From positions 1 to 56,991 of IMG/VR virus record IMGVR_UViG_3300025098_000048: a DNA stretch of 56,991 nt; one strand, written 5' to 3'. Under the pieces are notes generated by a model, which saw only the letters and a list, made by a program, of their open reading frames with translations, did not search any database and had not been told where the DNA came from. Position 1 is the first letter of the stretch, and every line of letters begins with the position of its first letter. The translations under genes and the position numbers were made by a program. Of the stretch, positions 3,421-52,769 are shown one piece after another. Source of the stretch: a virus (taxonomy: Duplodnaviria; Caudoviricetes).

Positions 3421-3637
3421 TTAACATTTGTGCAAAATATTCATATACTCAATATACCTGAACTTCCACTTTCCGAAACCCAACAAGTCGTTTCGTTATT
3501 GAGCCAGTTTTTGGTTCTCCTTGTTGTTTCTTAAGAAGATGGTAAGATTTAAGTATTCTTCGCTACAAAGGAATTTGTCACTCCTTTCCACAAAAACAGA
3601 AATGTTTTAGCCCTGGTCGAAAGATTGGGGTTTTTTT
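3421..3637 (+). ncRNA. candidate small RNA unit (promoter, structured body, terminator)
   Basis: TTAACA-17-TATACT (3421-3449), ORF-free body with TTCTCCTT and CTCCTTTCC, terminator 3611-3637. Confidence 0.45.
3611..3637 (+). terminator. intrinsic terminator
   Basis: CCCTGGTC-GAAA-GATTGGGG then T7. Confidence 0.8.
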
Positions 3638-3644
3638 ATGCTCG

Positions 3645-5360
3645 CTAATCGATAAGGCCAAAGCGCATAGCTACAAGCCTATCTTCTTCACTCCACTCAT
3701 CAATATCATCGTTTTTCGTAATGCCTTTTTCATTTAATACCTGCGTTACTACGTCTCCGTGCGTATTATTACCAGCAATGCGTTCTCCTTTATGATTTAA
3801 AATTACCTCACCTATTGCAATCGAGTAATCTCCGAAGCTTTTTTGTAGTTCGTTTAAGCCGTGATATAAACTATCGAGCAAATCGTCATGTTTTGCCACG
3901 GGGAATAGAGAAGCTTCGTTAATAAACTCATCCATTACGTTTCTGCTTCTTTCATCACCTATAGGAAACTTAATAAAATTGTTTTCGAATAAAACAGCAA
4001 CCTTGTGGATACCTACTTTCAGTGCATTATGCCTCGTCATAGCGATACCTTTTACAGGCATTGAAGTTCTTTGCAGTTGATTTACATATAGATTACCAAA
4101 AGAGTTCTTTTCTACTATAACACACCTAACGTAATCACTAAATTTGTTATACATAGAAGAAATAGCGTTAAGTATTTCAGTTTGTGTTAAACCTCTATCC
4201 CTGAAAACATCTATTACCCATACATTACCTTGCTCATCTCGGCATAACGTATAACCAACAGTGAAGTCGCTATCGTTCTTTGCTGCTTTTTTAGAATCAG
4301 ATTCGATAGATAAATCCCAAGATTGAACAACGGTGCATTCTGATATATCAAGGTTTGGAGGAAACGTCCCTAAGCTATAGTTTGTTTGAGCATTTCTTTT
4401 AACCCACTCTGGCTTAATAACAGCGCTTTCTAAAGCAAGGGGTTGATTCATCATCTCTCGAGCAAAAAGAGTTGCTCCCATGCTTCTTCTTTCCATAAGT
4501 AGATATTCTATAGGCCTAAATTCTGGCCATAAAACTTCGTAATCCCCTTCAACCTTAACACCTTTTAGAACTTCACGACCACGTGAATCAGCTTCTATGA
4601 TATATTCATACTTTTCAGGCCACTTTAGAATAGCAGGATCTTCTATAACTTCAAAAGTTGGGTCGTTTTTCATGTGAGAGTAAAGATCATCGTCGTGTTT
4701 TCTTGTGCCGATTACTAACATCAAACCACCTTGATTTAGAATAGGAGTTACAGTTGCACCTAACCATTCACGAGTTTTTGAGCGAACACCTGCTGATGCT
4801 GTTGTTAAATCATCTTCTAAGTCGTCAAATATAACAATATCAACATGCGCCCCAGTAATTTTACCTCCTACACCAATAGCTTCTATGGTTGGATCAACAG
4901 ATGTGCCATTTCTTTGAACATAAAGCTGTGTGCTCGTCCATTTACTATCTTTATCTCTAAACTTAGGCATATCTTCACCATTTGCCCAGTCGCCAACGAT
5001 TTTATCATCATCTAAATATTGTTTAATAAGCCTCACACGTTTCTCTGCTTGCCCTGCGCTGGCACTTATGAATAGGATAGATATGTTTCTATCCATACAG
5101 ATTTTCCTTACAGCGTATGAAATCGCAAGCAGCGATTTGCCATGTGAGCGAGGTGCAAGAACGAGTAGTTTTTTCTTATCGTTGCTTTGTTTAGCTTCGG
5201 CTTCTAATCTATCAATAGTTTTCAGCCAGTTTGTTCTATGTGGTGCTTTACGCATCTTAAGATAATGTGAATCGAAAAATACTGAAGATGCAGAACCTAA
5301 AGCTCTTCTCCCAGCTGTTGTATTTAAAAGTTGTGCTACATTAGCTTTATTATCACTCAT
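3645..5360 (-). CDS. terL: terminase large subunit
   Basis: Walker A APRSHGKS, Walker B DIVIFDDLE, coupling motif IGTRKH, nuclease motifs QSWDLS and HDDLLDSL. Confidence 0.95.
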   Translation of the reverse strand: MSDNKANVAQLLNTTAGRRALGSASSVFFDSHYLKMRKAPHRTNWLKTIDRLEAEAKQSNDKKKLLVLAPRSHGKSLLAISYAVRKICMDRNISILFISASAGQAEKRVRLIKQYLDDDKIVGDWANGEDMPKFRDKDSKWTSTQLYVQRNGTSVDPTIEAIGVGGKITGAHVDIVIFDDLEDDLTTASAGVRSKTREWLGATVTPILNQGGLMLVIGTRKHDDDLYSHMKNDPTFEVIEDPAILKWPEKYEYIIEADSRGREVLKGVKVEGDYEVLWPEFRPIEYLLMERRSMGATLFAREMMNQPLALESAVIKPEWVKRNAQTNYSLGTFPPNLDISECTVVQSWDLSIESDSKKAAKNDSDFTVGYTLCRDEQGNVWVIDVFRDRGLTQTEILNAISSMYNKFSDYVRCVIVEKNSFGNLYVNQLQRTSMPVKGIAMTRHNALKVGIHKVAVLFENNFIKFPIGDERSRNVMDEFINEASLFPVAKHDDLLDSLYHGLNELQKSFGDYSIAIGEVILNHKGERIAGNNTHGDVVTQVLNEKGITKNDDIDEWSEEDRLVAMRFGLID

Positions 5361-5634
5361 TTTCTTCCATTTCTTTGTTTGTTAATATATCATAAATAAA
5401 AAGCTGCCATTCTTCACTTTCAGCTGCAGCTTTTACTTCTTCTTTTGTATATTCTAACTCGTTAGCTTCTAAAACAGGAACTAAAAGTTTTGCCATTGCT
5501 CTAATAAAAATATTTCTTGCAGTTGCTGTATTCATTTCCATATCTTCTTCCTCACGCATAGTTTTTGCAACTTTACGCCATGGCATAACATCAACTCCAT
5601 TTAAAATTGTATATTTTCCTCTTGATTTTCGCAT
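5353..5634 (-). CDS. small HTH-like (sigma region-4-like) protein overlapping terL start
   Basis: MPWRKVAKTM...MNTATARNIFIRAMAKL; 8-nt overlap with terL. Confidence 0.55.
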   Translation of the reverse strand: MRKSRGKYTILNGVDVMPWRKVAKTMREEEDMEMNTATARNIFIRAMAKLLVPVLEANELEYTKEEVKAAAESEEWQLFIYDILTNKEMEENE

Positions 5635-5831
5635 TTTTGTTTATCCCTTTTTTTACATATTGTGTTTATTAAATATATTTATGTTTATACAAACAGAACT
5701 TTTTTTTTATTTTTTATGATAAAAGCTGAGTGAAGTGTATATGTATTAGTATAATACAGTTTCTCAATGGATAAAAGTATAATTTTTCTGTGTGAAAAAA
5801 TATCACAGAGAAAGGTAAGCTCTATTAACAT

Positions 5832-6113
5832 ATGATTGATGCAAAAGATTTCGATACGTATTACCAAACCGATCCTCAATTTCTTCCAGCTGAAGTATTA
5901 CAGCGTGAAGTTAAAAGTAGGCATATTAAATCCGTATCATACGACACATACAAGCGAAGTATGTTTATAGAGTTTATAAATGGCGACCGGCATATGTTTG
6001 CTGGTGTGCCTATTAGTGTTTTCAACGAGTTCCTTACTGCGGAAAGTAAAGGAAAATATTTCAAACGTAAGATTGAAAACGCATATCCACACTTAAAAAT
6101 ACCTAAAAACTAA
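5832..6113 (+). CDS. KTSC domain protein
   Basis: VKSRHIKSVSYD...IEFINGDRHMFAGVPISVFNEFLTAESKGKYFKRKI matches the KTSC pattern. Confidence 0.9.
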   Translation: MIDAKDFDTYYQTDPQFLPAEVLQREVKSRHIKSVSYDTYKRSMFIEFINGDRHMFAGVPISVFNEFLTAESKGKYFKRKIENAYPHLKIPKN

Positions 6114-6149
6114 TAGAGCGGATTACTCCCTCAGAAAGAATGGTTTCTA

Positions 6150-6878
6150 ATGCAGTATAAAGTAAGAACTTTTACAATTCCCAATAAAATAAATAAGGTT
6201 GCTGAAGAGGTTGATTTTGAAATCGCTGGTTTAGCATCTGACGCTATTACTATTACTATCAGTGATGTTGATGGTGATTCAAAGCAGTTTAAATTTGATA
6301 ACACAAGAGATACAGTAGGCGCAGATGGCGATGTTATTTTACTTCCATCATTGGATGCACCTTCTCAAGCTGTTAGAACTCAACGTTTATTTGATGAGTT
6401 TAATAACATTCAAGGTGCAAGTGGTTTAAATCTTCAGTTTCTTAAAGAAACAGATACAAAAATAAAGATTAAGCAACTAAAAGGTGGCGATGTTGTTTCT
6501 ATTGCTCTTTCTGCTGGTGCTGGTGGCACAATAACAGAGGTTACAGCAGGAACAGAAGGCGTTGCTAATCCTGCATATGGCGACCCACTCGTTTTAACTC
6601 CTTCAAATCTTGGATTTAATCCAGCAGCTGGAAACCTAAGCAAGGTTCAAGTTTCTTGCCTTGATTTTGGTGGAACTTTTGGCCTTAACTTCCGCCCAGT
6701 TGGAACAGGAGATTATATCACATTCACTGACCCAGTTAATGGTGTTGCTGCAGATGCAGGTGATGATTTAATCCTATTAGGTCGTGATGAAGATCCTATC
6801 TTTGACGCAATCGAAATCACATTCGCTAATCCTGATGATAGTGATATCACAGTATATTGCACTTTTATTGAGAGATAA
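6150..6878 (+). CDS. putative virion structural protein
   Basis: 242 aa, beta-rich composition, heads the fibre genes. Confidence 0.55.
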   Translation: MQYKVRTFTIPNKINKVAEEVDFEIAGLASDAITITISDVDGDSKQFKFDNTRDTVGADGDVILLPSLDAPSQAVRTQRLFDEFNNIQGASGLNLQFLKETDTKIKIKQLKGGDVVSIALSAGAGGTITEVTAGTEGVANPAYGDPLVLTPSNLGFNPAAGNLSKVQVSCLDFGGTFGLNFRPVGTGDYITFTDPVNGVAADAGDDLILLGRDEDPIFDAIEITFANPDDSDITVYCTFIER

Positions 6879-6923
6879 GGTAAAGAAACAAAAAATCATA
6901 AATTTTAGAAAGGTAAAATAAAT

Positions 6924-9900
6924 ATGGCTATTTTCAAAAGTGGGCAGGGATACGCTTCTACTACTGAAGGTGGATTACTGGCTCTTGCTACAGCTGCAGA
7001 ACATCTTGCAGGCTTAAACAGTAGTAAAGCAGCAACTCCGGCAGGTGTTAGAGCAATGCTCGACCAATTAATTGATGGAGCGCCAGGTTTGTTAGATTCG
7101 CTAAACGAGCTTGCAGCTGCTATCGGAGATGATGCAAATTTTTCAGTTACAGTAAATAATCAAATAACAAACCTACAGGATCAGATAAACTCATTATCTG
7201 GCGGTGGTGCTTCTAATCAAGCTGAAGTTGATAGAATTGAAGCCGGCGTTGGCTTAGGCTCAACAGGTTTATATGTCGCAAGAAGTGGCACAAACTATAT
7301 CGATTCAGCCAGCACAATCGCTGCAGAAATAGGATTATTAGATACACAAATTAAATCAAATGAAGATGTATCAACAGCACTTAACGTTCGTTTAACAACT
7401 GCAGAAAGCGAAGTTGATACACTTCAAACAGAAAGCACGGATTACGAAAGCCGAATATCTTCTTTAGAAGCAGGTGGAAGCCTTGGAGCATTACAAAGCG
7501 AACTTGATGCATCTCAAGCTTCTGTTGGCCTTAACGCTAACGGAACTTTAGGCACATATGCAAATACAAACTTTTACTCAGCATCTGCTACAATCAAAGA
7601 AGCTATTGAAGGTGTTGATGCACAGGCTAAACTAAACGATGACGATATTACTTCACAAGGTAATCGTATTACAGTATTAGAAGCAGGCGGAAGTATTTCT
7701 GCTCTTCAAAGTGAAGTTGATGCTTCTCAAGCAGCCGTTGGATTATCTGCATCTGGCGCTTACGTTTCACGAAGTGGTTCTAATTACTTAGATAGCGCTT
7801 CTACTATTGTTGCAGAAATAGGTTTATTAGACGCACAAGTCGATACTAATGAGCAAGATATCGCCACAATCAATACAACTATCAGCACACTTACTTCTGA
7901 AGGTGATAGTAATGGCGATGCTATTGATGCATTACAAATTGAGTTAGATGCTACTCAAGCTGGCGCTGGATTATCTAACTTAGGTTCATACTCTGCTCCT
8001 GGCGCATCTAACTATTTAACATCAGCATCTACATTAAAAGCTGCTGATTCACTGCTTGATACACAGATTAAGGTAAATGCAGACGCTATAGCATTAAAGG
8101 CTTCAACAAGCAGTGTTTCTGCGAATACTTCAAGTATCTCTACTAATACGTCTAATATATCTACCAACGCTTCAGATATTTCTGCGGCTGAAGTTGATAT
8201 TGCAGCTAATACATCAGCAATTGCAGGTAAAGCAGCAAGCTCTACAACTACAGCAATACAAACTGAAGTTGATGCTATTGAATCATCTGTGGGCTTAGGT
8301 TCTTCAGGTGGATTAAATTATTCAGGAACACCTGCATTATTTAGTGCTTCTGCTACATTAACTGCAGCAATTCAAGCATTAGATGGTGAAATAGTTACAA
8401 ATGCTGGTGATATTCTTGGTAATGCAAATCAGATTACTGCACAAATCGCATTAAACAATACACAGGAAACTGCGATAGGTTTATCATCAACAGGAACATA
8501 TGTTTCTCGCTCTGGCACAAACTATTTAGATAGTGCATCAAGCGTTGTGGGAGAAGCTACTCTACTTGATACTCAAGTTAAAGCTAACTTCGATTCATTA
8601 GCAACTAAAGCAACTGCAGTTCAATTATCAGCACTCGACATTAGGGTTACAAATAATGCAAGCGGTTTAGTTTCTAACGATACAGAGATTCAAGCTCTTG
8701 AGGATTTACAAACTGTTCAAGAAGCTGCTATCGGCCTTAATGCTAACGGAACTTATACAACTGTTGCTTCTTCTAACTACCTTGAGAGTGCAACAACCAT
8801 TAAGGCATCACTCGATGCATTAGATACACAGTTAAAATCCACACAGGATGATTTAGATACTGCTGAATCAACTATAGTTAGCCATACAAGTAGTTTATCA
8901 ACTAATGCTGCTGCAATCTCTGCTAACACTTCCAGTATCTCTTCTAATGATACAGAGATTCAAGCTCTTGAAGATTTAGCAGATACACACGAAACGAGTA
9001 TTGGTTTAGATAATGATGGTGGATATACCGCTATCAGTGGAGCAAACTATGCAACAAGTGGAGTAAGCATCAAAGCTGCTATCACTCAATTAGATACGCA
9101 GCTTAAAACTACTCAAGATGAAGTTGATGCAGAAGAAACAGCTCGAGCAAGTGCAGATAATACATTAGCAACAGCTATTAATACTGTTGAGGCATCTGTA
9201 GGTTTGGCAGCTGATGGTAGTTTAACCATTTCAGGAACAAACTTCCTTAACTCCTCATCAACAATCGTTGGCGCATTAAGCACATTAGATACTAATCAAA
9301 ATCTTTTGAGCGGCATTCGCACTAATATGATTGCTTCTCTTGGGCTTTCAACAACTGGTGAGAAAAACAGTTATGCTAATACAAACTTCATCTCAAACAG
9401 TGAAGATGTTATTGAAGCTATCGAAGCTCTCGATCGCCAAGTTAAAACTAATGAAACAGATATTTCAAGCGTTAGTGGTGGAAGTATTTCTGCACTACAA
9501 ACTGAAGTTGATGCAATTGAAACTGCAGCAGGTTTAAGTTCTTCTGGAGCATATGTTGCACACAGTGGCACTAACTTTATGGATAGTGCTTCTACAATGC
9601 CAGCTGCTCGTGAAGCATTAGATACAAAACTTAAAACTGTTGCTGATGATTTGGATACTGCAGAAGCTGCTATCGTAAGTAATGATACTGATATTACAGC
9701 ACTACAAACAAGAGCTACTTCATTGGAGCAACGTTGTGGTGGTATGTTTAAAAACGATACTTCAACAACTTCAGCAGTTATGGATAGCTCACCTATTATC
9801 AGAGGGCACGCAGGCCCATTCGCTTATAACTTAGGCCAATCATATCTTGATGGATTTGGAGCCGGAGGATTTGGTTTCGACTTTATCTTCTATGGCACAT

Positions 9901-16036: not shown

Positions 16037-16065
16037 TAAATAAAACTAAAGCATGAGAGGGCATA

Positions 16066-17525: not shown

Positions 17526-17770
17526 CAAAACGTTAAATAAATAAAAAAAAATTAGCCTAAAACTAATAAAACATAAAAGTAAAGATATATATAATAATAT
17601 GAATGTTGGTAATATGCTCAGGAAAAGTTTTTTGCCGGCCGCTATTAAGTTAAATAAAGAATGCGCGCTATAATGCACACCATTTTTGTTACATAATACA
17701 CAATAGTTAAACAATGTTCAGTAATATTATTATAATAGCTTTCAACTCAATTCAAAAATAGGAGATACAT

Positions 17771-18427
17771 ATGAAAACCGAAAGTGATAACAATCGTATC
17801 GAAGAGCTTCTTAAAAACATTAAGGAAGCACTTGATAGCGAAGCAAAAGCTTCTGAAGTTATTGCAAAAGGTGCCGATGAATTGATTGAGGTTCAAACTG
17901 AAAAGCTGGAAACATTTTCTAAAGCGTTAGATATTCTTAATGAGAAGATTGATGCTGTGATGGAAAAGTTTGAAAGCTTAGCTATTCCTTCTGTTGAAGA
18001 TATTGAAAAAAGTATCAACGACAAAGCAGAAGAAATTGCAAAGAACCTCGACGAAAAAGTCGAACCGATTGCAAAGCGTGTCGTTGATGCCGAAGAAAAA
18101 ACTGAAGCGTTGGCCAAGAAGAATGAAGAACTAACAGCTCAAAATGATGAGTTGGTTAAAACAGTTGAAGAATCTGTTTGTGAAAACGAAGAGCTTATTA
18201 AGAAAGTTGATGAACTTGAAAAAGAGCCAATCGTTAAAACAGTTTCAGAACCTGTAGAAGTTCGTGAAGAAGTTGTAGTTGAAGAAACTACAGAACTAAC
18301 TCGTCCTGAGCTCATCAGCAAAGCTCTTGTTGAAATCAAAACCGCTGATTTACCACGCCGTAAAGAACTGTTCAAGGCAGTATCTAAGCTCGAAGCTGGC
18401 GTATCATTAACTGAAATAAAACTTTAA
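17771..18427 (+). CDS. putative scaffold protein
   Basis: E/K-rich coiled coil directly upstream of the capsid gene. Confidence 0.7.
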   Translation: MKTESDNNRIEELLKNIKEALDSEAKASEVIAKGADELIEVQTEKLETFSKALDILNEKIDAVMEKFESLAIPSVEDIEKSINDKAEEIAKNLDEKVEPIAKRVVDAEEKTEALAKKNEELTAQNDELVKTVEESVCENEELIKKVDELEKEPIVKTVSEPVEVREEVVVEETTELTRPELISKALVEIKTADLPRRKELFKAVSKLEAGVSLTEIKL

Positions 18428-18439
18428 TAGGAGATACAG

Positions 18440-19942
18440 ATGTTACCTAACATTAACGAAAACGTAGATATTAACGATCTAACCCGTCTTAACGATGCAC
18501 TTAAAAAGAACAGTGAAGTTGGTTATCAAACCCAAGCTGGCACTGCAGGCTTTAATGCTATCGTTCCACAATCAATCGAAGGAACTCTTGCTTCTGCTAC
18601 TCATAGCATGCAAGATTTGGCTCTTTGGCCGATGCTTCCTAAGGTTCAAGTTTCTAATACACTACATGAATATGCAGTAATCAAAGAGCACGGTCAAGAT
18701 CTCGACCCCTTCATTTCAGAGGGTGGCGGAGCTCAAAGTGATTTTGGTTCAACTGCTTCTGTTTATGAGCGTAAAAACGTAAAAATCAAGTATATGGCCG
18801 AAAGACGTCAGATTTCTGATGTTGCGACTCTTGTTGGTATTCTTGGAAGCAACCCAAATGGTTTAGCTGAAGAAACTGAAAGAGGAACAATGAGCCTCAT
18901 GCGCAAAGTTGAGCAACAGTTATTCTGGGGCGACGAAGAGCTTGATGCAGCAGGAAGCACTCCTTTCGACGGTATCTTAAAGCAAATTGAGCGTGCAGGT
19001 GGAGCAAGAACTGACGCAAACGGTGGGCAGGCTTTCTCTGAGAATACTGTTTCTAACGAAGGCGCTTCTCTCGACCCAACTAAACTTCACGACATTCTTG
19101 GTGAGCTTCACAGCGCACCTCGTTTTGGTCGTCCTGATACTGTTATGATGGAGCCTCGTTTATACAGCCAGCTTATCAAGCAATCAGTTCAAAACGGTCG
19201 TCATGATTCACTTCTTATGGTAGATCGTGGAGCTAACGGTGTTCAAACTCTTGGTGCTGGGCCAAAACTTCACATTATGGGACCCATGGGCCCAGTTCCT
19301 GTTGTTTCAGCTCCTTTCCTTAGCCGCCACTTCTCTGCAAGTGCTGCAGGTTCAGCCACAATCGGTGGTGCATTTACTCAGGTTCCTGTAGCTTCTGGCG
19401 CAGGCGTAGCTAAATGGGATCTTGCTGGTGGTGCAACTGATAATCATAATGGTTTCTTCCGTTATGTTGTAGTTCCAGTTAGCAAGCAAGGATACGGCGC
19501 ACCTATCGTTTCTGTAGCTTCTATCCAAGGTGATAGTGGTGCTCAAGCAGAGCCGATTAAGTTCCAAGTAAGTAATCCTAACGGAGCACATTACTATCGT
19601 ATCTATCGCCTCAAACCAGGATATAGCCAAGCAGCTGCTGACGCTCTTACTTCTGCTGAGGTTATTCGTGATAGTAAGCTTATTGCTGAGGTTCCTGCTG
19701 CAGAAATCGTTGGACGTGAGTTCGAGGATTATGGTATTGAGCGTTGGGGCCACGGACGTATCGTTTTCGCACAAATGGATCAAGGCGTTATCGAGTTTGC
19801 TCGTCTTCTCGATTTCCTTCGTCGTCCTTTGGCAGAAACCGGTTCAGCACGACAATTCCTATTGATGCTCTTCGGATCACCTGTAGTGAAAATTCCTTCT
19901 AAGTGCTTCACTCTTCGTGATGTTCCTTCAGTATTACTTTAA
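18440..19942 (+). CDS. major capsid protein
   Basis: IVPQSIEGTL, NTLHEY, FISEGG, KIKYMAERRQIS, EQQLFWGD, FDGILKQI resemble SPO1/Twort-type MCPs. Confidence 0.92.
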   Translation: MLPNINENVDINDLTRLNDALKKNSEVGYQTQAGTAGFNAIVPQSIEGTLASATHSMQDLALWPMLPKVQVSNTLHEYAVIKEHGQDLDPFISEGGGAQSDFGSTASVYERKNVKIKYMAERRQISDVATLVGILGSNPNGLAEETERGTMSLMRKVEQQLFWGDEELDAAGSTPFDGILKQIERAGGARTDANGGQAFSENTVSNEGASLDPTKLHDILGELHSAPRFGRPDTVMMEPRLYSQLIKQSVQNGRHDSLLMVDRGANGVQTLGAGPKLHIMGPMGPVPVVSAPFLSRHFSASAAGSATIGGAFTQVPVASGAGVAKWDLAGGATDNHNGFFRYVVVPVSKQGYGAPIVSVASIQGDSGAQAEPIKFQVSNPNGAHYYRIYRLKPGYSQAAADALTSAEVIRDSKLIAEVPAAEIVGREFEDYGIERWGHGRIVFAQMDQGVIEFARLLDFLRRPLAETGSARQFLLMLFGSPVVKIPSKCFTLRDVPSVLL

Positions 19943-20021: not shown

Positions 20022-20070
20022 GAAGCCTTTAGTTTGCCCTCTCTCAATAGCTTGCTAAAGGCTTCTTTTT
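20022..20070 (+). terminator. intrinsic terminator after capsid gene
   Basis: GAAGCCTTTAG...CTAAAGGCTTC then T5. Confidence 0.75.
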
Positions 20071-22657: not shown

Positions 22658-22739
22658 TTAAACAAAAGTTAAATATTAATGCTGTTAGTGATATATAATA
22701 AAGGATAAACATCCAATTTCGAAATAGGAGATAACAATT

Positions 22740-26337: not shown

Positions 26338-26355
26338 ACAAATAGGAGATATTTT

Positions 26356-40655: not shown

Positions 40656-41024
40656 ATGTTTCCTGTATTTTTTGAAAACAGTAAAGTTCCTAAGGTTTTG
40701 AGCAAGGTTGCACCAATAGAAATAAATGCAATAACGCTTGGGCCTTTAGTTTTTAGTCGTGGTGAGTTATCTGATAAGGTTAAAAGGCACGAAACAATTC
40801 ACTGGATGCAATACAAAGAGCTTTTGATTATAGGCTTCTTGATTGTATATCTATATGATTATCTGTTTGCTGCTGTTTTAAAGAAAAAGGGCTTTAATAG
40901 GCAATCCTATTTAGCAATAAGATTTGAACAAGAAGCATACGATAATGATACTAACGAAAATTATTTAAAAGAAAGAAAACCATATAAGTGGTTAGATTAT
41001 CCACTCGGAGGAAACAATGAATAA
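40656..41024 (+). CDS. HEXXH zincin-like small protein
   Basis: AITLGP...RHETIHWMQ...IRFEQEAY. Confidence 0.7.
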   Translation: MFPVFFENSKVPKVLSKVAPIEINAITLGPLVFSRGELSDKVKRHETIHWMQYKELLIIGFLIVYLYDYLFAAVLKKKGFNRQSYLAIRFEQEAYDNDTNENYLKERKPYKWLDYPLGGNNE

Positions 41025-41295
41025 AGATAAAAAAACACTTTCACCAATGCAAAGCAAAAAGTTTTTAGCATATTTGTTTGCAGATATCGGATGGAAAGCT
41101 ATTATCCTATATCAGTTAATGCACCTTAAAGGAAAACTGGAGCTAAATGAGCTAACTTTTTTAATAACAACAGTAATAACAGCTGGTGTAATACAGATTG
41201 GTTATATATTAGGGCAAAATTCACTTGATAAATACTTGAGTTCAGCCGTAGAGATATTTGATAGAGACGATAAACCCCCAAAAAAAGAGGGGTAA
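41017..41295 (+). CDS. two-TM membrane protein, holin-like
   Basis: SKKFLAYLF...ITAGVIQIGYILGQ; charged C-terminus. Confidence 0.55.
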   Translation: MNKDKKTLSPMQSKKFLAYLFADIGWKAIILYQLMHLKGKLELNELTFLITTVITAGVIQIGYILGQNSLDKYLSSAVEIFDRDDKPPKKEG

Positions 41296-41296
41296 T

Positions 41297-41488
41297 ATGA
41301 TTTTTGATGAAAAAACAGTGTGTGCTCTCTGTAAAAAGATAGAGTGCCAATGCACATATTACAAATGCCCTTGTGGAAAGTTAGAAATAAACTGTAAATG
41401 GCCAGAAGATAGCTTTTGCCCTTGTAGAATATGTGATGAGTTAGCTCATAACTGCTCATGCCATAAACCTTTGGAGAAGAAAGAATGA
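41297..41488 (+). CDS. 63-aa Cys-rich peptide
   Basis: 12 Cys and 2 His in CxxC/CxC patterns; GAGGGG RBS; overlaps next start. Confidence 0.65.
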
Positions 41489-42186
41489 AAAAAGTTTTAT
41501 TATTCATATCTATTGTTTTTATTTACTGCTATATAAATCTGATTCAAATATTTCCAAGTTGGGCTCAAAGCTATGAATGTGATAACAACTTTGAAGATTG
41601 TGGAACACCTGAACAGAGTGGTGGTGGAGGCGGAGGAAAAGGCAGCGTTTTAATAGCAAATACAGATTTAGGTGATAGTTATCAACATGCAGATGATTAT
41701 GATGATGATGGCATTGAAGATCCATCTGATAACTGTATGAGAATGCCTAATCCACAACAACTTGATAGAGATGGAGATGGTGTAGGTGATGCTTGTGATA
41801 ACTGCCTATCAATACATAACCCCTATCAGCAAGATATGGATGGTGATATTTTAGGAGATTACTGTGATGATGATATTGATGGTGATACGTTATTAAACAG
41901 TGATGACGAATGCCCGTTTATGTATGGAAATAGTTATTGCTTTGAAGAGTTAAGCAGAGAGCATCCTCGTGATTCACAGCAAGCTATATGGATATCAGAT
42001 GAACAACCTTATAGCATAACAAGTAGGAATAAAAATCATACTAATGAGTTAGATGATAAAGAAGGCTGTAATCAAAGTTATAAAAAAGGAAGTGGGAATT
42101 GGTTATGGTGGGGTTTCTTTTTTTGGTTTATTTATTTATTCTTAAACTGGGAGAAGCCTAACAAAAACAACAAGAAAGATGATTAA
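41485..42186 (+). CDS. secreted thrombospondin type-3 repeat protein, myxobacterial MtsC-like, with C-terminal membrane anchor
   Basis: signal peptide; [34 protein letters not shown]; [22 protein letters not shown]; [17 protein letters not shown]. Confidence 0.8.
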
Positions 42187-42191
42187 ACATT

Positions 42192-43037
42192 ATGGAAGAA
42201 AACAACGTTGTTGAAGCTGAAATAGCTATTGTAATAACAGATATTATTGCGAGCACTCGTTTCGTTCAAAAGAACGGTAAATATGCTGCTGCACGTTGGT
42301 TTTCCACACACGATAAGCTCGTTATGAGTTTAATAACGAAACATAATGGGCAATGGTTAGATAACAGCGATGGCACTTTGATGTATTTTGGTAATGTGCC
42401 AGATGCTATTGCTTTTGCATTTGCTTATAAAAAGTTTTTAAGAGTTAAGAAGTTTCCTTTTAGGAGCAGGATTGGCATTCACTGGGAAAGTATGCTGATT
42501 GTTAAAACAGAACAAAGTATGATATCAGGAGGAGCTAAACGATTAGCTATCGAAGGTATAGGTAAAAACATAGCAGCAAGAACAATGAGTTTATGCGGAT
42601 CTGAGCAAATACTTTTATCACATTCAGCTTATACAATATTTAAAAGATACGGGCACAAAAACCCATTCATACCTAAAAATGCATTATCAGCACTTGTAGG
42701 ATTATACAAGTTTAAAGGTGTTTCTGAACCTGAGCGTATTTATGCTGTTGGCTTGATTACGGAACAAATGCAACCTCCACCCGATTCAGAGAAAGCAAAG
42801 AGGATTGGTGGTGCAAAGAAAATAAAAACAAGAATGAAACATAAACGATGGAGTGAAATATTTTTTTACTTTTTATATCGCATCGGCTTTATAATGTTTT
42901 GTTATTTGATATATACTTTCTGGCCTTTACTTTCAAATGGGCAAGCTAAAGCAAGTTGGAATATTGATTACCTCGTTTTACGACCATTTGAATATATAGA
43001 TTTACTAATATGTTTTATCAAGGATTTAATAAAATGA
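42192..43037 (+). CDS. class III nucleotide (adenylate/guanylate-type) cyclase with C-terminal TM
   Basis: IVITDIIASTRF, SDGTLMYF, RIGIH, GKNIAARTMSL..EQILLS, YKFKGVSEP. Confidence 0.88.
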   Translation: MEENNVVEAEIAIVITDIIASTRFVQKNGKYAAARWFSTHDKLVMSLITKHNGQWLDNSDGTLMYFGNVPDAIAFAFAYKKFLRVKKFPFRSRIGIHWESMLIVKTEQSMISGGAKRLAIEGIGKNIAARTMSLCGSEQILLSHSAYTIFKRYGHKNPFIPKNALSALVGLYKFKGVSEPERIYAVGLITEQMQPPPDSEKAKRIGGAKKIKTRMKHKRWSEIFFYFLYRIGFIMFCYLIYTFWPLLSNGQAKASWNIDYLVLRPFEYIDLLICFIKDLIK

Positions 43038-43165
43038 AAAACAGCAGCATTCTGGAATACATCTGGATTGGTTTTCTAATAAGTGTTATCTTAACACAGT
43101 TATATATTACAAGAATTGAAATGGATAAACCTTATGGGATTGAAAAAGCAGCCAGAAGGCGCTGA
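43034..43165 (+). CDS. 43-aa single-TM peptide coupled to the cyclase
   Basis: ATGA overlap with cyclase stop; MKNSSILEYIWIGFLISVILTQLYITRIEMDKPYGIEKAARRR. Confidence 0.45.
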   Translation: MKNSSILEYIWIGFLISVILTQLYITRIEMDKPYGIEKAARRR

Positions 43166-43601
43166 TAAAGAAGTCGTTCAACAGAAAAGAGAAACAAGAG
43201 GCTGGTTATTTAGCGTTGTTTTCTTATTTACAATAATAATGCTGATTATTTTTTTAGCGTTATTTGATTTTAAAGAGAGTAATCGTGAAGTTTTAATCGG
43301 GTTGTTTGGTATTTTATTTGGTAATATACCTTCGATGATTATCATTGCGAGTGGAAGAAGCCCTGAAGAAATAGATGAATTGAAATCTAAACTTTCAAAA
43401 AGTGATGGTGATAGGCAAGCTTTGATTGCAAGGCTTAGAGATTCACAAATACAACTTCAGTTAGCGCGTCAGCAAATGTTTGAGTTGCAAGATAGTGTTA
43501 TTAATGAACTTTCTATACTTAGAGGAAAAAATCCTATTAAGAGTAGAAACGAATCAGATGTAATACTGCCTGAAATAGTTGATGAATGGACGTTAAAATA
43601 A
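43134..43601 (+). CDS. two-TM plus coiled-coil membrane protein
   Basis: WLFSVVFLFTIIMLIIFLALF, VLIGLFGILFG; track start 43116 is TTG, ATG at 43134. Confidence 0.75.
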   Translation: MGLKKQPEGADKEVVQQKRETRGWLFSVVFLFTIIMLIIFLALFDFKESNREVLIGLFGILFGNIPSMIIIASGRSPEEIDELKSKLSKSDGDRQALIARLRDSQIQLQLARQQMFELQDSVINELSILRGKNPIKSRNESDVILPEIVDEWTLK

Positions 43602-46846: not shown

Positions 46847-47782
46847 TGTTTATCTTTCATTTTATCTTATATAGTATATATATCTTTCATTGTAGCAATT
46901 ATATAAAAAAAGTTAATATAATACAAAAAAAAAGTTAATATAATGTGTTTAGTTATGTTTTGAGCATATTAAAAACTTAAAAACTTAAATAAACACGACG
47001 TTAAATCAGATTTAATCTTTGCCCTTTAGTGAATATGTTTTAATGTATTTTAAGTAAAAATAAAACAGACGTTAATCTGCATATCTGAAATGTTATTGTT
47101 TTGTTATTCTGATAGGTGTAATAAATAACTGGTTATTATTTGCCTGAAAATGTATTGTTGTTTCTTTGAGTTTAGTAATCTTCTTAGAGTTTTTAGATTG
47201 CTTTTTTATTGAAAATGATTTAGCAGATTTTATTTACAACTTTTTAAAAATATTTTTTTTATTTTTTTTGTATGCTGAAAGTGTATGTATAATCATACTT
47301 TATTTAGTTTTAGAACTTTAGTAGAAAAAATAAATTGTAGTTTTTTGATTTTTTAGATATAGTTATCTTTGCCTACCTACCTACCACCACCCAAACAAAA
47401 ACAGATAAACAGTTCATTTAAATTCCATTCGTTACACTCATTACATTTAAATAAACATATTATTATTACTTTTACTCCACTCACTTCGTTCGTTACATAA
47501 AAGATAATATAATATATCAGGGTTCATCAACTAATAAAAAAAGCTCTGCGAGGGTTCCCCCGCTAGTTCATACAGTTATACAGATCTTCTAATATACTAA
47601 TCTACTATAGATACTAATATACTTTCAGTTAGTTATAACTATAACTTTAGTAATCTGAAATATATAATTTGTAATTTTTAATATAATATCTTAAAATAGT
47701 TTTACTAAAACAAGTTTATTACTAAGTTAGAGAATACTTATACTAAACTAATCTATAATATTTCAGAAAGTTATATACAAAG
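46847..47782. other. long AT-rich non-coding region, origin-like
   Basis: ~930 bp without a credible ORF between divergent genes; short direct repeats and two tandem inverted repeats at 47416-47517. Confidence 0.45.
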
Positions 47783-48166: not shown

Positions 48167-48352
48167 CTATAAATCTATTTCAAAGTTATTATCATCAGAG
48201 TTTAAATCTATGATTATTACTCTTTTAGGTTCTTTAGTAATTTTAGGTTCCACAGGCTCTCTAACTTCAGGTAAAGGCAACTCTAAATAGGGTCGTTCTT
48301 CACATTCAGATTGTTTTTTTTGAATATCTTGAATAATTAGCTCATCATACAT
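48167..48352 (-). CDS. small acidic hypothetical protein
   Basis: AAGGAG RBS; ERPYLELPLP...KRVIIIDL. Confidence 0.65.
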   Translation of the reverse strand: MYDELIIQDIQKKQSECEERPYLELPLPEVREPVEPKITKEPKRVIIIDLNSDDNNFEIDL

Positions 48353-48427
48353 TTTAAAACTCCTTTATTAATAACTATAAAAGAAAAAGCTTTATAATAT
48401 ATAATAAAACAAAGAAGGAGAAAATGT

Positions 48428-49723
48428 ATGAATGAAATTGAATCTAATCTTAAACAAAAATGCGTAATCATTGATACGTCAGTATTACTATACGATGCAC
48501 AATCAATATACAACTTTGGTTCTAACGATATTTACCTCCCTTTCGCAGTTTTAGAGGAGCTTGATAAGAAGAAAACTGAAGCAGGTTCTATTGGTGAAAA
48601 CGCAAGATTTATAAACCGTTTATTAGATAAGCTAAGAGCAGAAGGCCCTCTTCACGAAGGTGTTCCGTTTAACGACGTTAAGCTCACAGTTCTTACTAAT
48701 ATAAAACTATGTGATGAGTTAGAAGAGGAAAACAACGATAACGTCATATTATCTGCTGCTTTATTTGTAAGCGAGCAATATGATTATAACAAAGTTAAGC
48801 TGATAACTAAAGATATTAACCTAAGAGTTAAATCAGATGTATTAGGCATTATTTCAGCAGATTACTATGCTAATTACGAAGGTTTAGATACACAGTGGAG
48901 TGGTTGGAGAAAAGTAGATACAGTTTCTAAAGAGCAGATTGATGAGCTATATAAAAAAGGTTCATTACAAACAAAAGAAAAATATTATCAAAATGAGTTT
49001 CTTGTTTTAGAAAGTGAATCAAATACAGCTTTAGGGCAATACAAAGGTGGTAAGATTATTCTTGTATCATCAAAAGATGCTTGCCATAAAGAAACTGGTT
49101 GCACTCCTAAAAATAAAGAACAACAGTTTGCCTTACATACATTAACTGATGATGATATACCTATGATTACTTTAACAGGTTTGCCCGGAAGTGGTAAAAC
49201 ATTCTTATCATTTATGGCTGGTATTAAACTTGTTTCTGATGGAGCTTATGCTCGTATTATTTATACAAGGCCTATTACAACAGTTGGTAAATCATTAGGA
49301 TTTCTACCCGGTGATATCGAAGAGAAATGGGCACCTTACTTAGCACCTATTGAAGATAACTTTAGAAATGCATTTGGTGATCTAACATATTTCAGTTTAA
49401 TGCGTGAAAAAGGGCAGATTGATATCTCTCCGATTAGTTATATGCGAGGTAGAAGTTTTAAAAACTGCTATATCATTGTTGATGAAGCACAAAACTGCAC
49501 ACCACACGAACTGAAAACTATTATTACTCGTATGGCAGAAAATTCGAAGCTCATACTTTGCGGTGATACCAAACAAATAGATGATGTTTATATGAATGAA
49601 AGCTCTAATGGCTTATCAATCATACAAGGTAAGTTTCAAAACTCCAATCTATCAGCCCACGTTAAATTTACAAAGGGTTATAGAAGTAGGTTGGCAACAG
49701 AAGCTGATAGAATATTAGAATAG
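48428..49723 (+). CDS. phoH: PhoH-family ATPase with N-terminal PIN domain
   Basis: IIDTSVLLYD, VLEELD, ITKDINLRVK (PIN); GLPGSGKT, GFLPGD, YMRGRSF, VDEAQN, GDTKQID. Confidence 0.93.
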   Translation: MNEIESNLKQKCVIIDTSVLLYDAQSIYNFGSNDIYLPFAVLEELDKKKTEAGSIGENARFINRLLDKLRAEGPLHEGVPFNDVKLTVLTNIKLCDELEEENNDNVILSAALFVSEQYDYNKVKLITKDINLRVKSDVLGIISADYYANYEGLDTQWSGWRKVDTVSKEQIDELYKKGSLQTKEKYYQNEFLVLESESNTALGQYKGGKIILVSSKDACHKETGCTPKNKEQQFALHTLTDDDIPMITLTGLPGSGKTFLSFMAGIKLVSDGAYARIIYTRPITTVGKSLGFLPGDIEEKWAPYLAPIEDNFRNAFGDLTYFSLMREKGQIDISPISYMRGRSFKNCYIIVDEAQNCTPHELKTIITRMAENSKLILCGDTKQIDDVYMNESSNGLSIIQGKFQNSNLSAHVKFTKGYRSRLATEADRILE

Positions 49724-50021
49724 ATAACGACGTTGATTCACGTTAAAACAACAAAGCTTATATGATAAAACATATTAGAGGAAAAAACAATGAAAACAGA
49801 AGATAAAATAGTATTAAGAGTTTCACTAACATATTTTTTATGTTTTTTAACTCCCGCGTTAATAAATTCACTTTCTTGTGTATAGTTATAATATATCAAA
49901 CTGCTAAAGGTAAAGCTTTCTAAAACATCACGCTTTTTCAATGGTTCAAACTCTTCGTAAGCCACCTGAAAACAATTATTTTAGTATTAGTTTAAAAAAG
50001 TTTTATCTTTGGTAGTTTTTT

Positions 50022-50122
50022 TGTTATAATGTATATGGATTTAAAGGCGCTCACCTTTAAGTTCTCCTAAGATAATTTTGTTATTTGAAAGGCGCTGGTT
50101 AATCACTGGCGCCTTTTTTTTT
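50022..50122 (+). ncRNA. candidate ~85-nt small RNA unit
   Basis: TGTTATAAT extended -10; hairpin, single-stranded GTTCTCCT, terminator AAAGGCGC..GCGCCTTT plus T tract. Confidence 0.45.
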
Positions 50123-50247
50123 GCTTATTTCTAAACTTTTTTAACTTTTTAAGCATTTATTTTGTATTTATTTAACAAAAGTAATATAATTCATAATGTA
50201 AGTAATACTTATAAAAGAAAAACAAAAATCATTTAAAAGGAGAACAA

Positions 50248-50787
50248 ATGAGCGTTGATTTAAACCAAATGTTAAACACATACAAAAAAGAAAACGAAAC
50301 CCCACGACTAACATATATTCGTTCGGGTAAATACATTGCAGAGATTGAAAGTTTTACAACTACACCTGATAAAAACAATAAGCCTTGCTTTTTGGTTGGG
50401 TTTAAGATCTGCGCATTGCATTCAAAAGCATCTTCACACGATGTTGGTGATATTGTTTATTGGAAGAGAAGCATTAACAAGTTCAATATTAGAAGCCTTG
50501 ATGAAATAACTAAAGCTTTAAATATTGATACAGATACAACAGATTTAAATAATCTGTTTGACGATGAAAAATCTGGTGAAAAAGGCATTGGCTACGGAAA
50601 GAAACTAATCGTTGAGCTATTTAGGCCTGAAGGTAAGCAGTTTGATGAAACTAAGTTTTTGGAATATGATTTATCATCACAATCCTTCAGTAAGAACTTA
50701 GATTTGGCAAAAAAGTTAGCAGATATAAAAAAAAAGCAAGTTAAAAAAGAGTTTAGCATAGGCGACGAAGAAGTGGTTCCATTTTAG
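50248..50787 (+). CDS. putative ssDNA-binding (OB-fold-like) protein
   Basis: SGKYIAEIESF..LVGFKI; SSB-like tail GDEEVVPF. Confidence 0.55.
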   Translation: MSVDLNQMLNTYKKENETPRLTYIRSGKYIAEIESFTTTPDKNNKPCFLVGFKICALHSKASSHDVGDIVYWKRSINKFNIRSLDEITKALNIDTDTTDLNNLFDDEKSGEKGIGYGKKLIVELFRPEGKQFDETKFLEYDLSSQSFSKNLDLAKKLADIKKKQVKKEFSIGDEEVVPF

Positions 50788-50798
50788 AAAGGATATAA

Positions 50799-51392
50799 AT
50801 GATAAACGCTAATAAAATATATATTGAAAATAATAAAAAAGGCAAAAGCCCAGGCCAGTGGTTAATGCTGAAAGATACTAAAAAGCTTCTAAAGCTACAT
50901 GATTTTCAGCATACTAAAGAAGAAGAGGGTGATTACTTATTTGATGAGCAGTTAGCGTTTCATTATGAATATCATTTAAACCCTTTGATAGCTCATAACA
51001 TTAAAACAGAAGTTAAATCAGATATACCAGAAGTTAAACCTGATGTTGATTATTCTGATTTATTTAAAACGCTTTTCGTTGAAATAAGTGATGCAACAAT
51101 CAGAACAAACTTTATTCAACAGTTAGAATCGATTTCTAATATGAGTATCGATGCAATGATAAGAAATGCAACCGGGCCAATGCAACACATTATCAGTTTA
51201 TCAAAAGCTTTTGATTCAACCCTACAACTAAGATTAGCAGGAATGAATCAGCTTAAGAATAAAGCAAGAGCTGCTGCACAACACATACCTATACTACTAT
51301 TTAGTTCAGGTGAAACAATTTTTGAAGATAGCAAATTTGAATATTACATCAATAAAGCTAACGTTTTATCTAAAAGAGGAAAACAGATATGA
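50799..51392 (+). CDS. hypothetical protein
   Basis: AAGGAT RBS, 197 aa. Confidence 0.7.
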   Translation: MINANKIYIENNKKGKSPGQWLMLKDTKKLLKLHDFQHTKEEEGDYLFDEQLAFHYEYHLNPLIAHNIKTEVKSDIPEVKPDVDYSDLFKTLFVEISDATIRTNFIQQLESISNMSIDAMIRNATGPMQHIISLSKAFDSTLQLRLAGMNQLKNKARAAAQHIPILLFSSGETIFEDSKFEYYINKANVLSKRGKQI

Positions 51393-51613
51393 GTGAAATA
51401 CAAAATAAAGATAAACTATTTTTAGCATATGCTGATTTACAAAGAAACCTTAACGAAAGTTCTGTAGATTTAGAAAAGCTTTGCATTAAAGGTAATATTA
51501 CAAGTGCAAGAGATTTGCGACGTTTTCTAAGAGAAATGAAACAGATTACAACTAAAGCTATTGATATTACAAAAAAAATCGAAGCTGAAAACAGAGAGAT
51601 AAAGAAAGGTTAA
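51389..51613 (+). CDS. small helical protein, loosely like the histone-H1-like (GNKxAxxRxRK) family
   Basis: KGNITSARDLRRFLREMK. Confidence 0.5.
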   Translation: MSEIQNKDKLFLAYADLQRNLNESSVDLEKLCIKGNITSARDLRRFLREMKQITTKAIDITKKIEAENREIKKG

Positions 51614-51616
51614 GTT

Positions 51617-51982
51617 ATGAGCCCATTGATTTCAGAAGTTGCATTAAGTTTTTTAAAAGATGCAAAAAATCAAAGAACAATTATTCTTGTGCTGAGCGGA
51701 ATACTCGCTTTTGGTTTTGGCTATTGGTCGAAACATTGCCCACCTAAATCAGTTGTATGCAAAGCAGAAGAAAAACTAATATTAGGATTAACTGCTGAGG
51801 TAGCAGGAAAAGATGCAACAAGAATAGAACAACTAAGAAAACAAAAAGATGCAGATAGATTAGTTTGTGATGAACGAGTTGAAACTGCAAAAGATTCGCA
51901 AAGAGCATCAAACGATTTTCTCGAATGCTCTGATATCTGCGTTATGTATTCTCAATGTGAAGAACAAGGAAGATGTAGGTAA
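51617..51982 (+). CDS. N-terminal TM plus coiled-coil protein (spanin-like candidate)
   Basis: IILVLSGILAFGFGYW, coiled coil, Cys-rich end. Confidence 0.55.
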   Translation: MSPLISEVALSFLKDAKNQRTIILVLSGILAFGFGYWSKHCPPKSVVCKAEEKLILGLTAEVAGKDATRIEQLRKQKDADRLVCDERVETAKDSQRASNDFLECSDICVMYSQCEEQGRCR

Positions 51983-51983
51983 T

Positions 51984-52493
51984 ATGTTTAAGAGAATAAT
52001 CTCTGCTTTTCTTTCTTTAAGTTTATGTATAAACACAGTATTTGCGCAAGAACTTAAAACAGAAAACAACTTCGACTTATCTGAAGCACCAATGGTTTGG
52101 TCGCCGCAAAAGAAGAAGATTAAGGTAGGAAGTTTAGAACTTACTGTTTGGATTATGCCGAAACCTAATCTTTTAGCACCAAATGCCGGTTATTTACTTT
52201 TTAGATCTGATTTCGGTCAAATCAAACAAAGAATGGATAATATGGCAGCTGAAATAGCAAGATTAATTGCAGAAGAGAGAACTGCATGTGATTTACAGCT
52301 AAAAGAAAAAGATGCAAGCTGTATCAGGCAACAATCAGAACTAAGAGCTTCGTTTGATGCACAAGTAATACAGATAAAAGGTTTGAATACATCAATAGAT
52401 GATAAAGATGATTTGATTTTTTATTGGCAGTTAGGCGCAGGGGGTGCCGCAGTATTAGCTCTTTCATTAGGTTTGTTTGCTATTTCAAAATAG
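51984..52493 (+). CDS. exported coiled-coil protein with C-terminal TM
   Basis: ATG at 51984; signal peptide MFKRIISAFLSLSLCINTVFA; WQLGAGGAAVLALSLGLFAI. Confidence 0.65.
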   Translation: MFKRIISAFLSLSLCINTVFAQELKTENNFDLSEAPMVWSPQKKKIKVGSLELTVWIMPKPNLLAPNAGYLLFRSDFGQIKQRMDNMAAEIARLIAEERTACDLQLKEKDASCIRQQSELRASFDAQVIQIKGLNTSIDDKDDLIFYWQLGAGGAAVLALSLGLFAISK

Positions 52494-52567
52494 TTTTACA
52501 GTTTTCTGATTTAACATATATATAGTAGTAATAGCTAAATTTATGCGGTTATTATTATTGCTTTAAG

Positions 52568-52602
52568 AAATGCACTTCTATTATTAGTTGTGCATTTTTT
52601 TT
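52568..52602 (+). terminator. intrinsic terminator
   Basis: AAATGCAC...GTGCATTT plus T tract. Confidence 0.6.
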
Positions 52603-52769
52603 ACAAAATGTTAAGTTGTGATATACTTATACTATAGATTAGAACTTTTGGTTTGTTTGTGTGTTCAAGTTTGCTACTCCTTTAGCTGTTGTTGATTCTT
52701 TTTAAGTGTTAAAAAAGGTTCTAATCTTAACTAAAAGCTCAAGTATTTATTTACTTGGGCTTTTTTTTT
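52600..52769 (+). ncRNA. candidate ~135-nt small RNA unit with large single-stranded loop
   Basis: TTTACA..TGATATACT promoter; 14-bp stem 52636-52649/52714-52727; loop with CTCCTTT; terminator 52733-52769. Confidence 0.5.

Follow-up and report, generated by a model that had tools for sequence, protein, structure and literature searches.

Three self-contained cassettes predicted to encode small RNAs in an uncultured marine bacteriophage, one of them from a conserved structured family

Small RNAs that act in trans on Shine-Dalgarno sequences are an already known kind of regulator. In streptococci, the CiaR-dependent csRNAs are encoded by stand-alone promoter/terminator units of about 90-150 nt with two stem-loops; in the available sections of their description, an unpaired region complementary to the Shine-Dalgarno sequence is proposed to block translation initiation, and an anti-start codon, CAU, is also found in 53 of 61 of these RNAs (PMC3091779). 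The c4 RNA of phages P1 and P7 is presented, in the accessible part of another article, as a phage small RNA that pairs around the ribosome-binding site (RBS) of a nearby phage gene and blocks its translation, and the same source names PAK_P4 among the lytic phages that encode small or antisense RNAs (PMC12197685). Small RNAs have been mapped in the virulent phages phiKZ, PA5oct and the kayviruses as well; in the available portions of these reports they are mostly antisense or derived from untranslated regions and come from RNA-seq in cultured systems. Little is known about the small RNAs that lytic phages encode, and such RNAs are nearly absent from the annotation of uncultured marine viruses. 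Here we analysed the IMG/VR virus record IMGVR_UViG_3300025098_000048, from a phage whose DNA is found in marine and viral metagenomes; the window is the entire record, 56,991 bases, with an estimated completeness of about 40%. In contrast to the virulent-phage RNAs above, this uncultured marine phage carries intergenic stand-alone cassettes, known from sequence alone, which are predicted to encode small non-coding RNAs.

A looser promoter-terminator script of our own, applied blind to the whole window as an objective scan for orphan units, yielded exactly three plus-strand loci and one weak minus-strand unit (17757-17652). A preliminary description of this DNA had proposed that three plus-strand intergenic loci share one arrangement, a promoter, no open reading frame (ORF) and an intrinsic terminator, and the promoter, terminator and ORF scans bore this out for the following elements:

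3421-3449, plus strand: locus 1 promoter, TTAACA-17-TATACT, matching the consensus at 10 of 12 positions
3456-3640, plus strand: predicted locus 1 RNA, about 185 nt, a family member with homologues in related phage contigs
3609-3639, plus strand: locus 1 terminator, 10 pairs (3609-3632) and a T-run, found by the terminator scan and kept in all homologues
50002-50030, plus strand: locus 2 promoter, TTTATC-17-TATAAT with an extended -10 (TGT TATAAT, 50022-50030), found by the looser script
50036-50122, plus strand: predicted locus 2 RNA, about 87 nt, with a 5′ hairpin (50037-50064), a linker CTCCT (50064-50068), a weak hairpin (50070-50086) and the terminator
50087-50117, plus strand: locus 2 terminator, 13 pairs, found by the terminator scan
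52600-52627, plus strand: locus 3 promoter, TTTACA-16-TATACT with TG, found by the promoter scan
52634-52773, plus strand: predicted locus 3 RNA, about 140 nt, with a 14-pair closing stem (52636-52649/52714-52727), an inner hairpin (52673-52686) and the terminator
52733-52764, plus strand: locus 3 terminator, 13 pairs, found by the terminator scan

The top plus-strand promoter-like sites of the standard tool scan were 3421-3449 and 52600-52627; the locus 2 promoter is unlisted there because its -35 hexamer matches just 3 of 6 positions. The strongest plus-strand terminators of the scan were 3609-3632, 50087-50117 and 52733-52764. Between 40000 and 56991, terminator-like sites numbered 14 against 6.0 +/- 2.3 in shuffled sequences, and promoter-like sites were not above the shuffle level. 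ORFs of at least 20 amino acids (aa) are few in the three loci and either use TTG or GTG starts or begin upstream of the predicted start site; reading of the sequence revealed no ATG in the predicted RNAs of loci 2 and 3. These results support the earlier claim that the loci are discrete ORF-free units which standard annotation would miss. Pairwise similarity among the three is at the shuffle level, and neither loci 2 and 3 nor an orphan unit of the relative G001 are hits of a covariance model built on the 5′ domain of locus 1; the common set first described is not supported. The three loci are real and most likely correspond to three independent small-RNA genes. A fourth locus (20033-20054) had been added to them; a hairpin loop exists at this position, within an ordinary 3′ terminator that has no promoter:

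20022-20070, plus strand: terminator hairpin after the major-capsid gene, arms 20022-20032 and 20055-20065, then a T-run

The reading that we favor, with a probability of roughly 0.5, is that of three unrelated self-contained cassettes whose RNAs would control translation initiation by base pairing.

Locus 1 provides the most extensive comparative evidence. Homologues were retrieved with nhmmer E-values of 1e-27 to 1e-48, and the copies in G001, L027 (the same as G001 within the RNA), L038, G003 and G002 form, with that of the window, a family of five distinct sequences. The G001 copy is 79% identical over 230 nt, rising to ~97% in the last 93 nt, where about 3 positions differ. The proteins encoded on either side, by contrast, are unrelated or 60% identical. 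The covariance model of the 5′ domain recovered all copies at 96-109 bits, with no other match below an E-value of 0.89. The promoter position is kept in the homologues, as TAAACA-16-TATAAT in G001 and TATACA-16-TATAAT in G003, with the same hexamers by eye in G002; across the family the hexamers vary but remain promoter-like, and the terminator is retained. Indels of 5, 2, 1, 3, 3 and 5 nt among the homologues break all frames, which excludes coding at this locus and also rules out, for locus 1, that its CTCCT tracts are the RBSs of small minus-strand genes. Four elements were delineated within the RNA:

3501-3517, plus strand: hairpin H1, GAGCCA / TGGTTC, all 6 pairs of which have changed on both sides in at least 1 of the 5 sequences, with no pair broken
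3517-3521, plus strand: CTCCT no. 1, where H1 meets an outer helix; CTCCC in G003 and ATCCC in G002
3548-3559, plus strand: block TTTAAGTATTCT, the strongest candidate for a seed, largely unpaired and retained by all 5 homologues, with a single A/G change among them
3567-3587, plus strand: hairpin H3, AAAGGA / 9-nt loop / TCCTTT, holding CTCCT no. 2 (3581-3585) in its 3′ arm

Between G003 and G002, both partners differ in 4 of the 6 base pairs of H3 and none is broken, a count made on these two sequences only; MAFFT did not align H3 between subgroups, and the window group has a third version. The arms read AAAGGA/TCCTTT, AGGAGT/ACTCCT and GAGGAT/ATCCTC, always with GGA in the 5′ arm and TCC in the 3′ arm. 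Because the partner arm of CTCCT no. 2 always contains GGA, H3 looks like an internal Shine-Dalgarno/anti-Shine-Dalgarno helix. The conserved 5′ end of the RNA pairs with the segment preceding block TTTAAGTATTCT. Based on these comparisons, locus 1 represents a new conserved structured RNA family of a group of uncultured marine phages, and selection on it as an RNA is supported. With its promoter, its terminator, its covarying helices and an unpaired block that is invariant apart from the A/G change, the family is concrete enough to be used in RNA family libraries and with metatranscriptomes.

The gene neighborhood of locus 1 differs between phages. The upstream gene encodes a 137-aa protein in the window (2989-3402, with no tblastn hit in G001), 146-148-aa proteins in G001 and G002, and a lipoprotein-like protein in G003, where the RNA occupies the slot that corresponds to locus 3 of the window. 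The cassette therefore behaves as an independent module. The gene beyond it is convergent. In relatives (L038:1-1125, minus strand; L027:1-140), the DNA downstream of the homologue comprises some 550 nt of non-coding sequence with C/A-rich tracts, followed by early-type genes. The G001 and L027 contigs end within 50-140 nt of the RNA of this family; the end of a genome or the border of a repeat may lie there.

Three pattern scans for locus 1 homologues returned 3, 20 and 8 stretches, of which 1, 2 and 1 were real; two others returned 26 stretches with 3 real and 7 stretches with 2 real (the other 5 being coding DNA), and the real ones of these last two scans were already known. The pattern found at least 120 stretches in prokaryote genomes, with none real among the matches listed. 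Matches in Pelagibacteraceae were rejected as homologues: by eye, their variation is of a third-codon kind, they look like one conserved coding gene and they had no nhmmer hit. A 20-mer in G004 resembling locus 1 was discarded as well, being inside a coding region. Locus searches with single proteins found nothing, blastn of locus 1 against the cultured-phage collection gave no match, and neither nhmmer nor the covariance model of the 5′ domain detected a paralogue in the window or in G001-G005. The shared 'VRFKYSS' reading, taken as a conserved small ORF spanning the locus, was also dismissed: by eye, G001 and G003 lack a start and have a stop just upstream, and L038 carries a deletion of 5 nt. 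Phage-encoded complements of the conserved locus 1 blocks, sought in the phage contigs, were self matches only.

Rfam 15 gave no match at gathering level in the whole window; at E-value level, the loci and their homologues reached at best 17-27 bits against thresholds of 40-111. The families RF02278 (Betaproteobacteria toxic small RNA) and RF02344 (ar14) carry C/U-rich motifs or loops resembling an anti-Shine-Dalgarno sequence. Both matched weakly the 3′ hairpin and terminator of the locus 1 family in the window, G003 and G002, at 12-21 bits against gathering scores of 50 and 58.8; the pyrimidine tract of locus 1 is a helix arm, not a loop as in those families.

The four CTCCT copies of the three loci start at 3517 and 3581 (locus 1), 50064 (locus 2) and 52677 (locus 3). 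The window holds 27 plus-strand copies, five of them in its 6175 intergenic bases; four of these five lie inside the three units, and the fifth (48360) is the Shine-Dalgarno sequence of the minus-strand gene 48167-48352. Analysis of 5000 dinucleotide shuffles gave probabilities of 0.16, 0.068 and 0.063 for at least one CTCCT in the respective loci, a joint value of about 7e-4 that needs a modest discount as the motif was picked after the fact. The tracts had been placed in or near unpaired segments. CTCCT does occur in all three loci and is open in locus 3, with a probability of being unpaired of 0.88, whereas it is paired in locus 2 (0.018) and locus 1 (0.000 for no. 1, 0.14 for no. 2). In locus 1, CTCCT is moreover not kept as a free sequence, tract 1 changing and tract 2 covarying with its partner arm, which speaks against an anti-Shine-Dalgarno role; for this locus such a role is unsupported. 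The conserved block at 3548-3559 is not pyrimidine-rich. Two orphan units of G001 that are not homologous to those of the window have no CTCCT.

Against the csRNAs, as far as the available parts of their description allow, locus 2 has the csRNA layout, but none of the three loci carries a CAU at the matching distance: reading of their sequences revealed no anti-start CAU 5-10 nt upstream of CTCCT at any tract. The csRNAs are also mutually similar and encoded by the host, whereas the three loci are mutually unrelated, are encoded by the phage and have no Rfam hit.

Locus 2 lies upstream of gene 50248-50787, to whose start region part of its RNA is complementary:

50061-50082, plus strand: part of locus 2 able to pair with 50221-50245, in the start region of gene 50248 (inverted repeats I10 and I4)
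50221-50245, plus strand: proposed target, the 5′ leader and Shine-Dalgarno sequence AGGAGAAC (50238-50245) of this gene

The predicted duplex of three helices, at -16.5 kcal/mol, ranks first among 54 start regions, and 4 of 1000 shuffles are as good (p about 0.004), so that the pairing with the 50238-50245 RBS pointed out beforehand does stand out from the controls. The locus folds with a z of -5.1 as a whole and -2.5 without the terminator (2 of 200 shuffles as good). Variants, read from the DNA contigs of runs X9 and X10 among four runs compared, number 4-5 per run in locus 2, at a density at least that of the flanks; they spare CTCCT, and one of them, 50069 A>T, lengthens the pairing with the 50248 site to 9 nt. 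The locus also contains a 12-nt direct repeat (50040-50051 and 50085-50096), by which 50043-50050 can replace 50088-50095 in pairing with the terminator 3′ arm 50109-50116. As this is an antiterminator-type alternative, a cis-acting leader has to be considered. Gene 50248 has a promoter of its own by eye, TTGTAT-17-TATAAT (50162-50190).

The proposed action of locus 2 on its neighbor resembles that of c4, as given in the accessible description of the latter; c4 is unrelated to the loci in sequence and structure, and Rfam gives no hit for it in the window. In temperate phages, c4 arises by processing of a longer immunity-region transcript. A limited literature search combining phage-encoded, small RNA and anti-Shine-Dalgarno returned Caulobacter work only, which does not prove that there is none in print.

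G001 carries a different orphan unit in the slot of locus 2, after PhoH and a small hydrophobic ORF; it lacks CTCCT and folds with a z of -3.7 as a whole and -4.1 for its body. The architecture therefore recurs at this position. The small ORF in the window (49790-49885) encodes 31 aa, follows PhoH with a good RBS and shares the MKT.D start with its 25-aa G001 counterpart (L048:14364-14441); it probably encodes a genuine small membrane protein and is a better candidate than the 75-aa ORF on the minus strand (49738-49965). A perfect 12-nt inverted repeat (49992-50003, 50133-50144), for which a rough estimate puts chance occurrence at a few percent, brackets the locus 2 cassette and may be a trace of mobility.

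Locus 3 presents its tract in the inner hairpin GCTA-CTCCTT-TAGC, where CTCCTT occupies a 6-nt loop (probability of being unpaired 0.88, rank 3 of 136). The complete RNA folds with a z of -5.3; its body alone gives -2.6, which 1 of 200 shuffles equals. The gene downstream has its own promoter (52877-52904) and a match to the RNA in its leader:

52959-52969, plus strand: 11 nt complementary to 52681-52691, within the leader of the homing-endonuclease-like gene (52983-53738)

Together with this promoter, the gene and its terminator, locus 3 forms a 1.4-kb insertion (52494-53886) relative to G001, in which the flanking genes abut. In G003 this slot houses an RNA belonging to the locus 1 family; a homologue of the endonuclease-like gene accompanies it, as do two or three small genes. 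As the contents of the slot differ between the window, G001 and G003, it is an insertion hot spot in which RNA cassettes behave as movable modules. Non-coding cassettes thus shift between genome slots like protein-coding 'morons'. At 53753-53817, a 9-pair terminator starts just 13 nt past a promoter-like TTTACA-16-TACAAT; either the two form a mini-unit, or the terminator belongs to the endonuclease-like gene and the overlapping promoter match is due to chance.

In the model that we propose, each cassette combines a sigma-70-type promoter and an intrinsic terminator with the 85-185 ORF-free nucleotides between them, and would most likely yield a small non-coding RNA. Host RNA polymerase would transcribe the cassettes early in infection; we infer this transcription and its timing, as well as the targets and their repression. 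The layout of the locus 1 family comprises a 5′ domain closed by pairing of the conserved 5′ end, H1, the unpaired block TTTAAGTATTCT, H3 and the terminator; the unpaired conserved block would be the likelier seed and the target probably a host one. Loci 2 and 3 would be lineage-specific cassettes, the latter residing with the homing-endonuclease-like gene in an insertion hot spot. The linker GTTCTCCT of locus 2 and the bases after it would pair with the leader and Shine-Dalgarno sequence of gene 50248, in trans or, on read-through, in cis, and the exposed CTCCTT loop of locus 3 would be its likely contact. An anti-Shine-Dalgarno role is thus plausible for locus 2, on the neighboring gene, and for locus 3, through its open loop.

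A number of results weigh against this reading. The complementarity of the RNA bodies to RBS regions was compared, over 54 start windows, with 300 dinucleotide shuffles per body. The five complementarities of 8-11 nt quoted in the preliminary description (88-96, 492-501, 50238-50245, 52959-52969 and 16055-16063) are all present exactly, but at chance level: the number of windows with matches of at least 6, 7, 8 or 9 nt gave p = 0.16-1.0 (0.31-1.0 for at least 7-9 nt), and no general excess of seed-to-RBS complementarity was seen, the locus 2 pairing with its neighbor gene being the one exception. Matches of this length arise freely by chance because a T-rich RNA meets A-rich leaders, and they call for caution in any A-rich phage whose leaders are purine-rich. 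For the 11-mer of locus 3, p is 0.23 across all 54 windows, against 0.012-0.016 for the -30..+3 window of gene 52983-53738 alone and 0.10 for its whole leader, and the duplex test ranks this neighbor only 4 of 54. The 9-nt match between the capsid-terminator loop and the RBS of gene 16066 has p = 0.18. Over the 54 windows, locus 1 (p 0.017) and locus 3 (p 0.09) had a mean duplex energy slightly better than that of shuffles; locus 2 did not (p 0.54). The locus 2 pairing statistic was selected after the data had been seen, the corresponding neighbor-gene test on the G001 orphan unit failed (p = 0.18), and in X9 the 5′ hairpin of locus 2 is weakened without compensation and one proposed duplex pair is lost. 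Homologues of locus 2 were not found in the contigs searched, where no pattern scan was made for it, nor were homologues of locus 3 in the sequences searched, its pattern scan giving 2 stretches and none real. The body of locus 1 folds no better than shuffles (z about 0), its family amounts to just 5 sequences in 3 clades, and mosaic exchange in these phages means that part of its identity could be recent transfer. Lastly, the runs listed for the phage include no RNA run, and the promoters and terminators are consensus matches only.

The preliminary description saw in the loci one functional set of anti-Shine-Dalgarno RNAs, the CTCCT of which would pair broadly with phage early or host RBSs and time shut-off. 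The presence of CTCCT in 3 of 3 plus-strand orphan units at a joint probability of 7e-4, the strong AGGAG/AAGGA Shine-Dalgarno sequences of the phage, the open loop of locus 3, the slightly favorable mean duplex energies of locus 1 (p 0.017) and locus 3 (p 0.09) and the sub-threshold Rfam matches to RF02278 (17-19 bits) and ar14 (14-21 bits) are all consistent with it. However, match counts are at chance and the loci are unrelated, one CTCCT of locus 1 is paired and not conserved while the other is a helix arm, both orphan units of G001 do without the motif, and a 5-mer seed alone is unspecific, which makes such a set unlikely; joint RBS silencing by the three cassettes is only weakly supported by these comparisons. 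A very different use of the same helix is conceivable, in which the locus 1 family would be a mobile self-expressed RNA module whose H3 mimics a Shine-Dalgarno/anti-Shine-Dalgarno helix and targets the initiation machinery itself instead of individual mRNAs, either serving as a decoy or opening to expose a strand like the 16S tail, loci 2 and 3 and the G001 unit being further 'RNA morons' in insertion hot spots; we regard this as a long shot. Hardly credible, finally, is the notion that the CTCCT tracts are the reverse complements of RBSs of small minus-strand genes. In locus 2, AGGAG is indeed followed after about 8 nt by a GTG that opens a 20-aa frame (49992-50054), but no promoter was found for this frame, which is antisense to the promoter and terminator; the AGGAGs of locus 1 have no start at a proper distance, in addition to the broken frames of its homologues, and that of locus 3 is followed by a 9-codon frame only, as read from the sequence.

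Two further explanations concern loci 2 and 3. As cis-acting leaders, or attenuators, they would normally end transcripts of the upstream promoter at the terminator and, upon read-through, mask the start of the next gene, so that only transcripts from the proximal promoter are translated. The alternative pairing that the 12-nt direct repeat offers to locus 2, the complementarity of each RNA to the leader of the gene directly downstream and the promoters owned by these genes (50162-50190 and 52877-52904) fit this arrangement. It is made doubtful by the strong terminators, with 13 pairs and long T-runs, and by the second promoters themselves, which render read-through unnecessary; besides, no ligand- or protein-binding motif was recognized, the G001 unit has no such complementarity, and locus 1, facing a convergent gene, cannot be a leader. 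Alternatively, both loci could be functionless leftovers of a lost small gene or mobile-DNA punctuation, with CTCCT a coincidence. That they have no homologues in the sequences searched, that locus 3 and the endonuclease-like gene are absent from the syntenic G001 site, that locus 2 varies at least as densely as its flanks in X9 and X10 and that a perfect 12-nt inverted repeat encloses it would all agree with this origin. We nevertheless find it improbable, as their bodies are more structured than shuffles, the joint CTCCT probability is 7e-4 and the G001 slot after PhoH and the small ORF holds a different orphan unit.

Several protein-coding genes place the cassettes in their genomic context:

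3645-5360, minus strand: large terminase (phrog_38)
18440-19942: SPO1-type major head protein
48428-49723: PhoH-like protein
52983-53738: homing-endonuclease-like protein (phrog_314, no Pfam hit)

The terminase and the capsid protein are just 24-25% identical to those of named phages. Metagenomes contain 193 terminase relatives at an E-value of at most 1e-20, the top non-self one with 78% identity; the terminase alignment took in 27 of the 120 relatives listed and led to 10 loci, of which 8 are IMG/VR loci with terminases 57-61% identical to that of the window. Most proteins common to the window and G001 are 30-55% identical, with 60% for the terminase. A four-gene block (41017-43601) reaches 73-97% protein identity to G001 between neighbors at 30-55%, which suggests a recent mosaic exchange. 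The terminase (3645-5634 in the window) is inverted relative to the structural module, whereas the two are co-directional in G001 (2143-3834). Searches for tRNA and tmRNA genes in the window returned none.

Clear Shine-Dalgarno sequences precede the genes of this phage, AAGGAAAAA or AAAGGA in early-type genes and ATAGGAGATA in several structural genes. The latter is an extended RBS motif common to several structural genes (17757-17767, 18426-18436, 22723-22733, 26341-26351 and others), and its use there versus AAGGAAAAA/AAAGGA in early-type genes constitutes a predicted class-specific leader signal. The 5′ leaders of two early-type genes open with AAGG...CCTT hairpins (455-485, 890-915) directly after a promoter-like TATAAT. 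Their loops contain strong Shine-Dalgarno-like runs, GGAGGAGGG and GGCGGGAGG, far upstream of the real RBS, and the hairpins may serve as 5′ stabilizers or ribosome decoys. Between divergent gene blocks, a 936-nt AT-rich stretch (46847-47782) has no ORF of at least 60 aa. Repeats occur in it, CCTACCTACCTACC among them, and it may function as an origin or control region.

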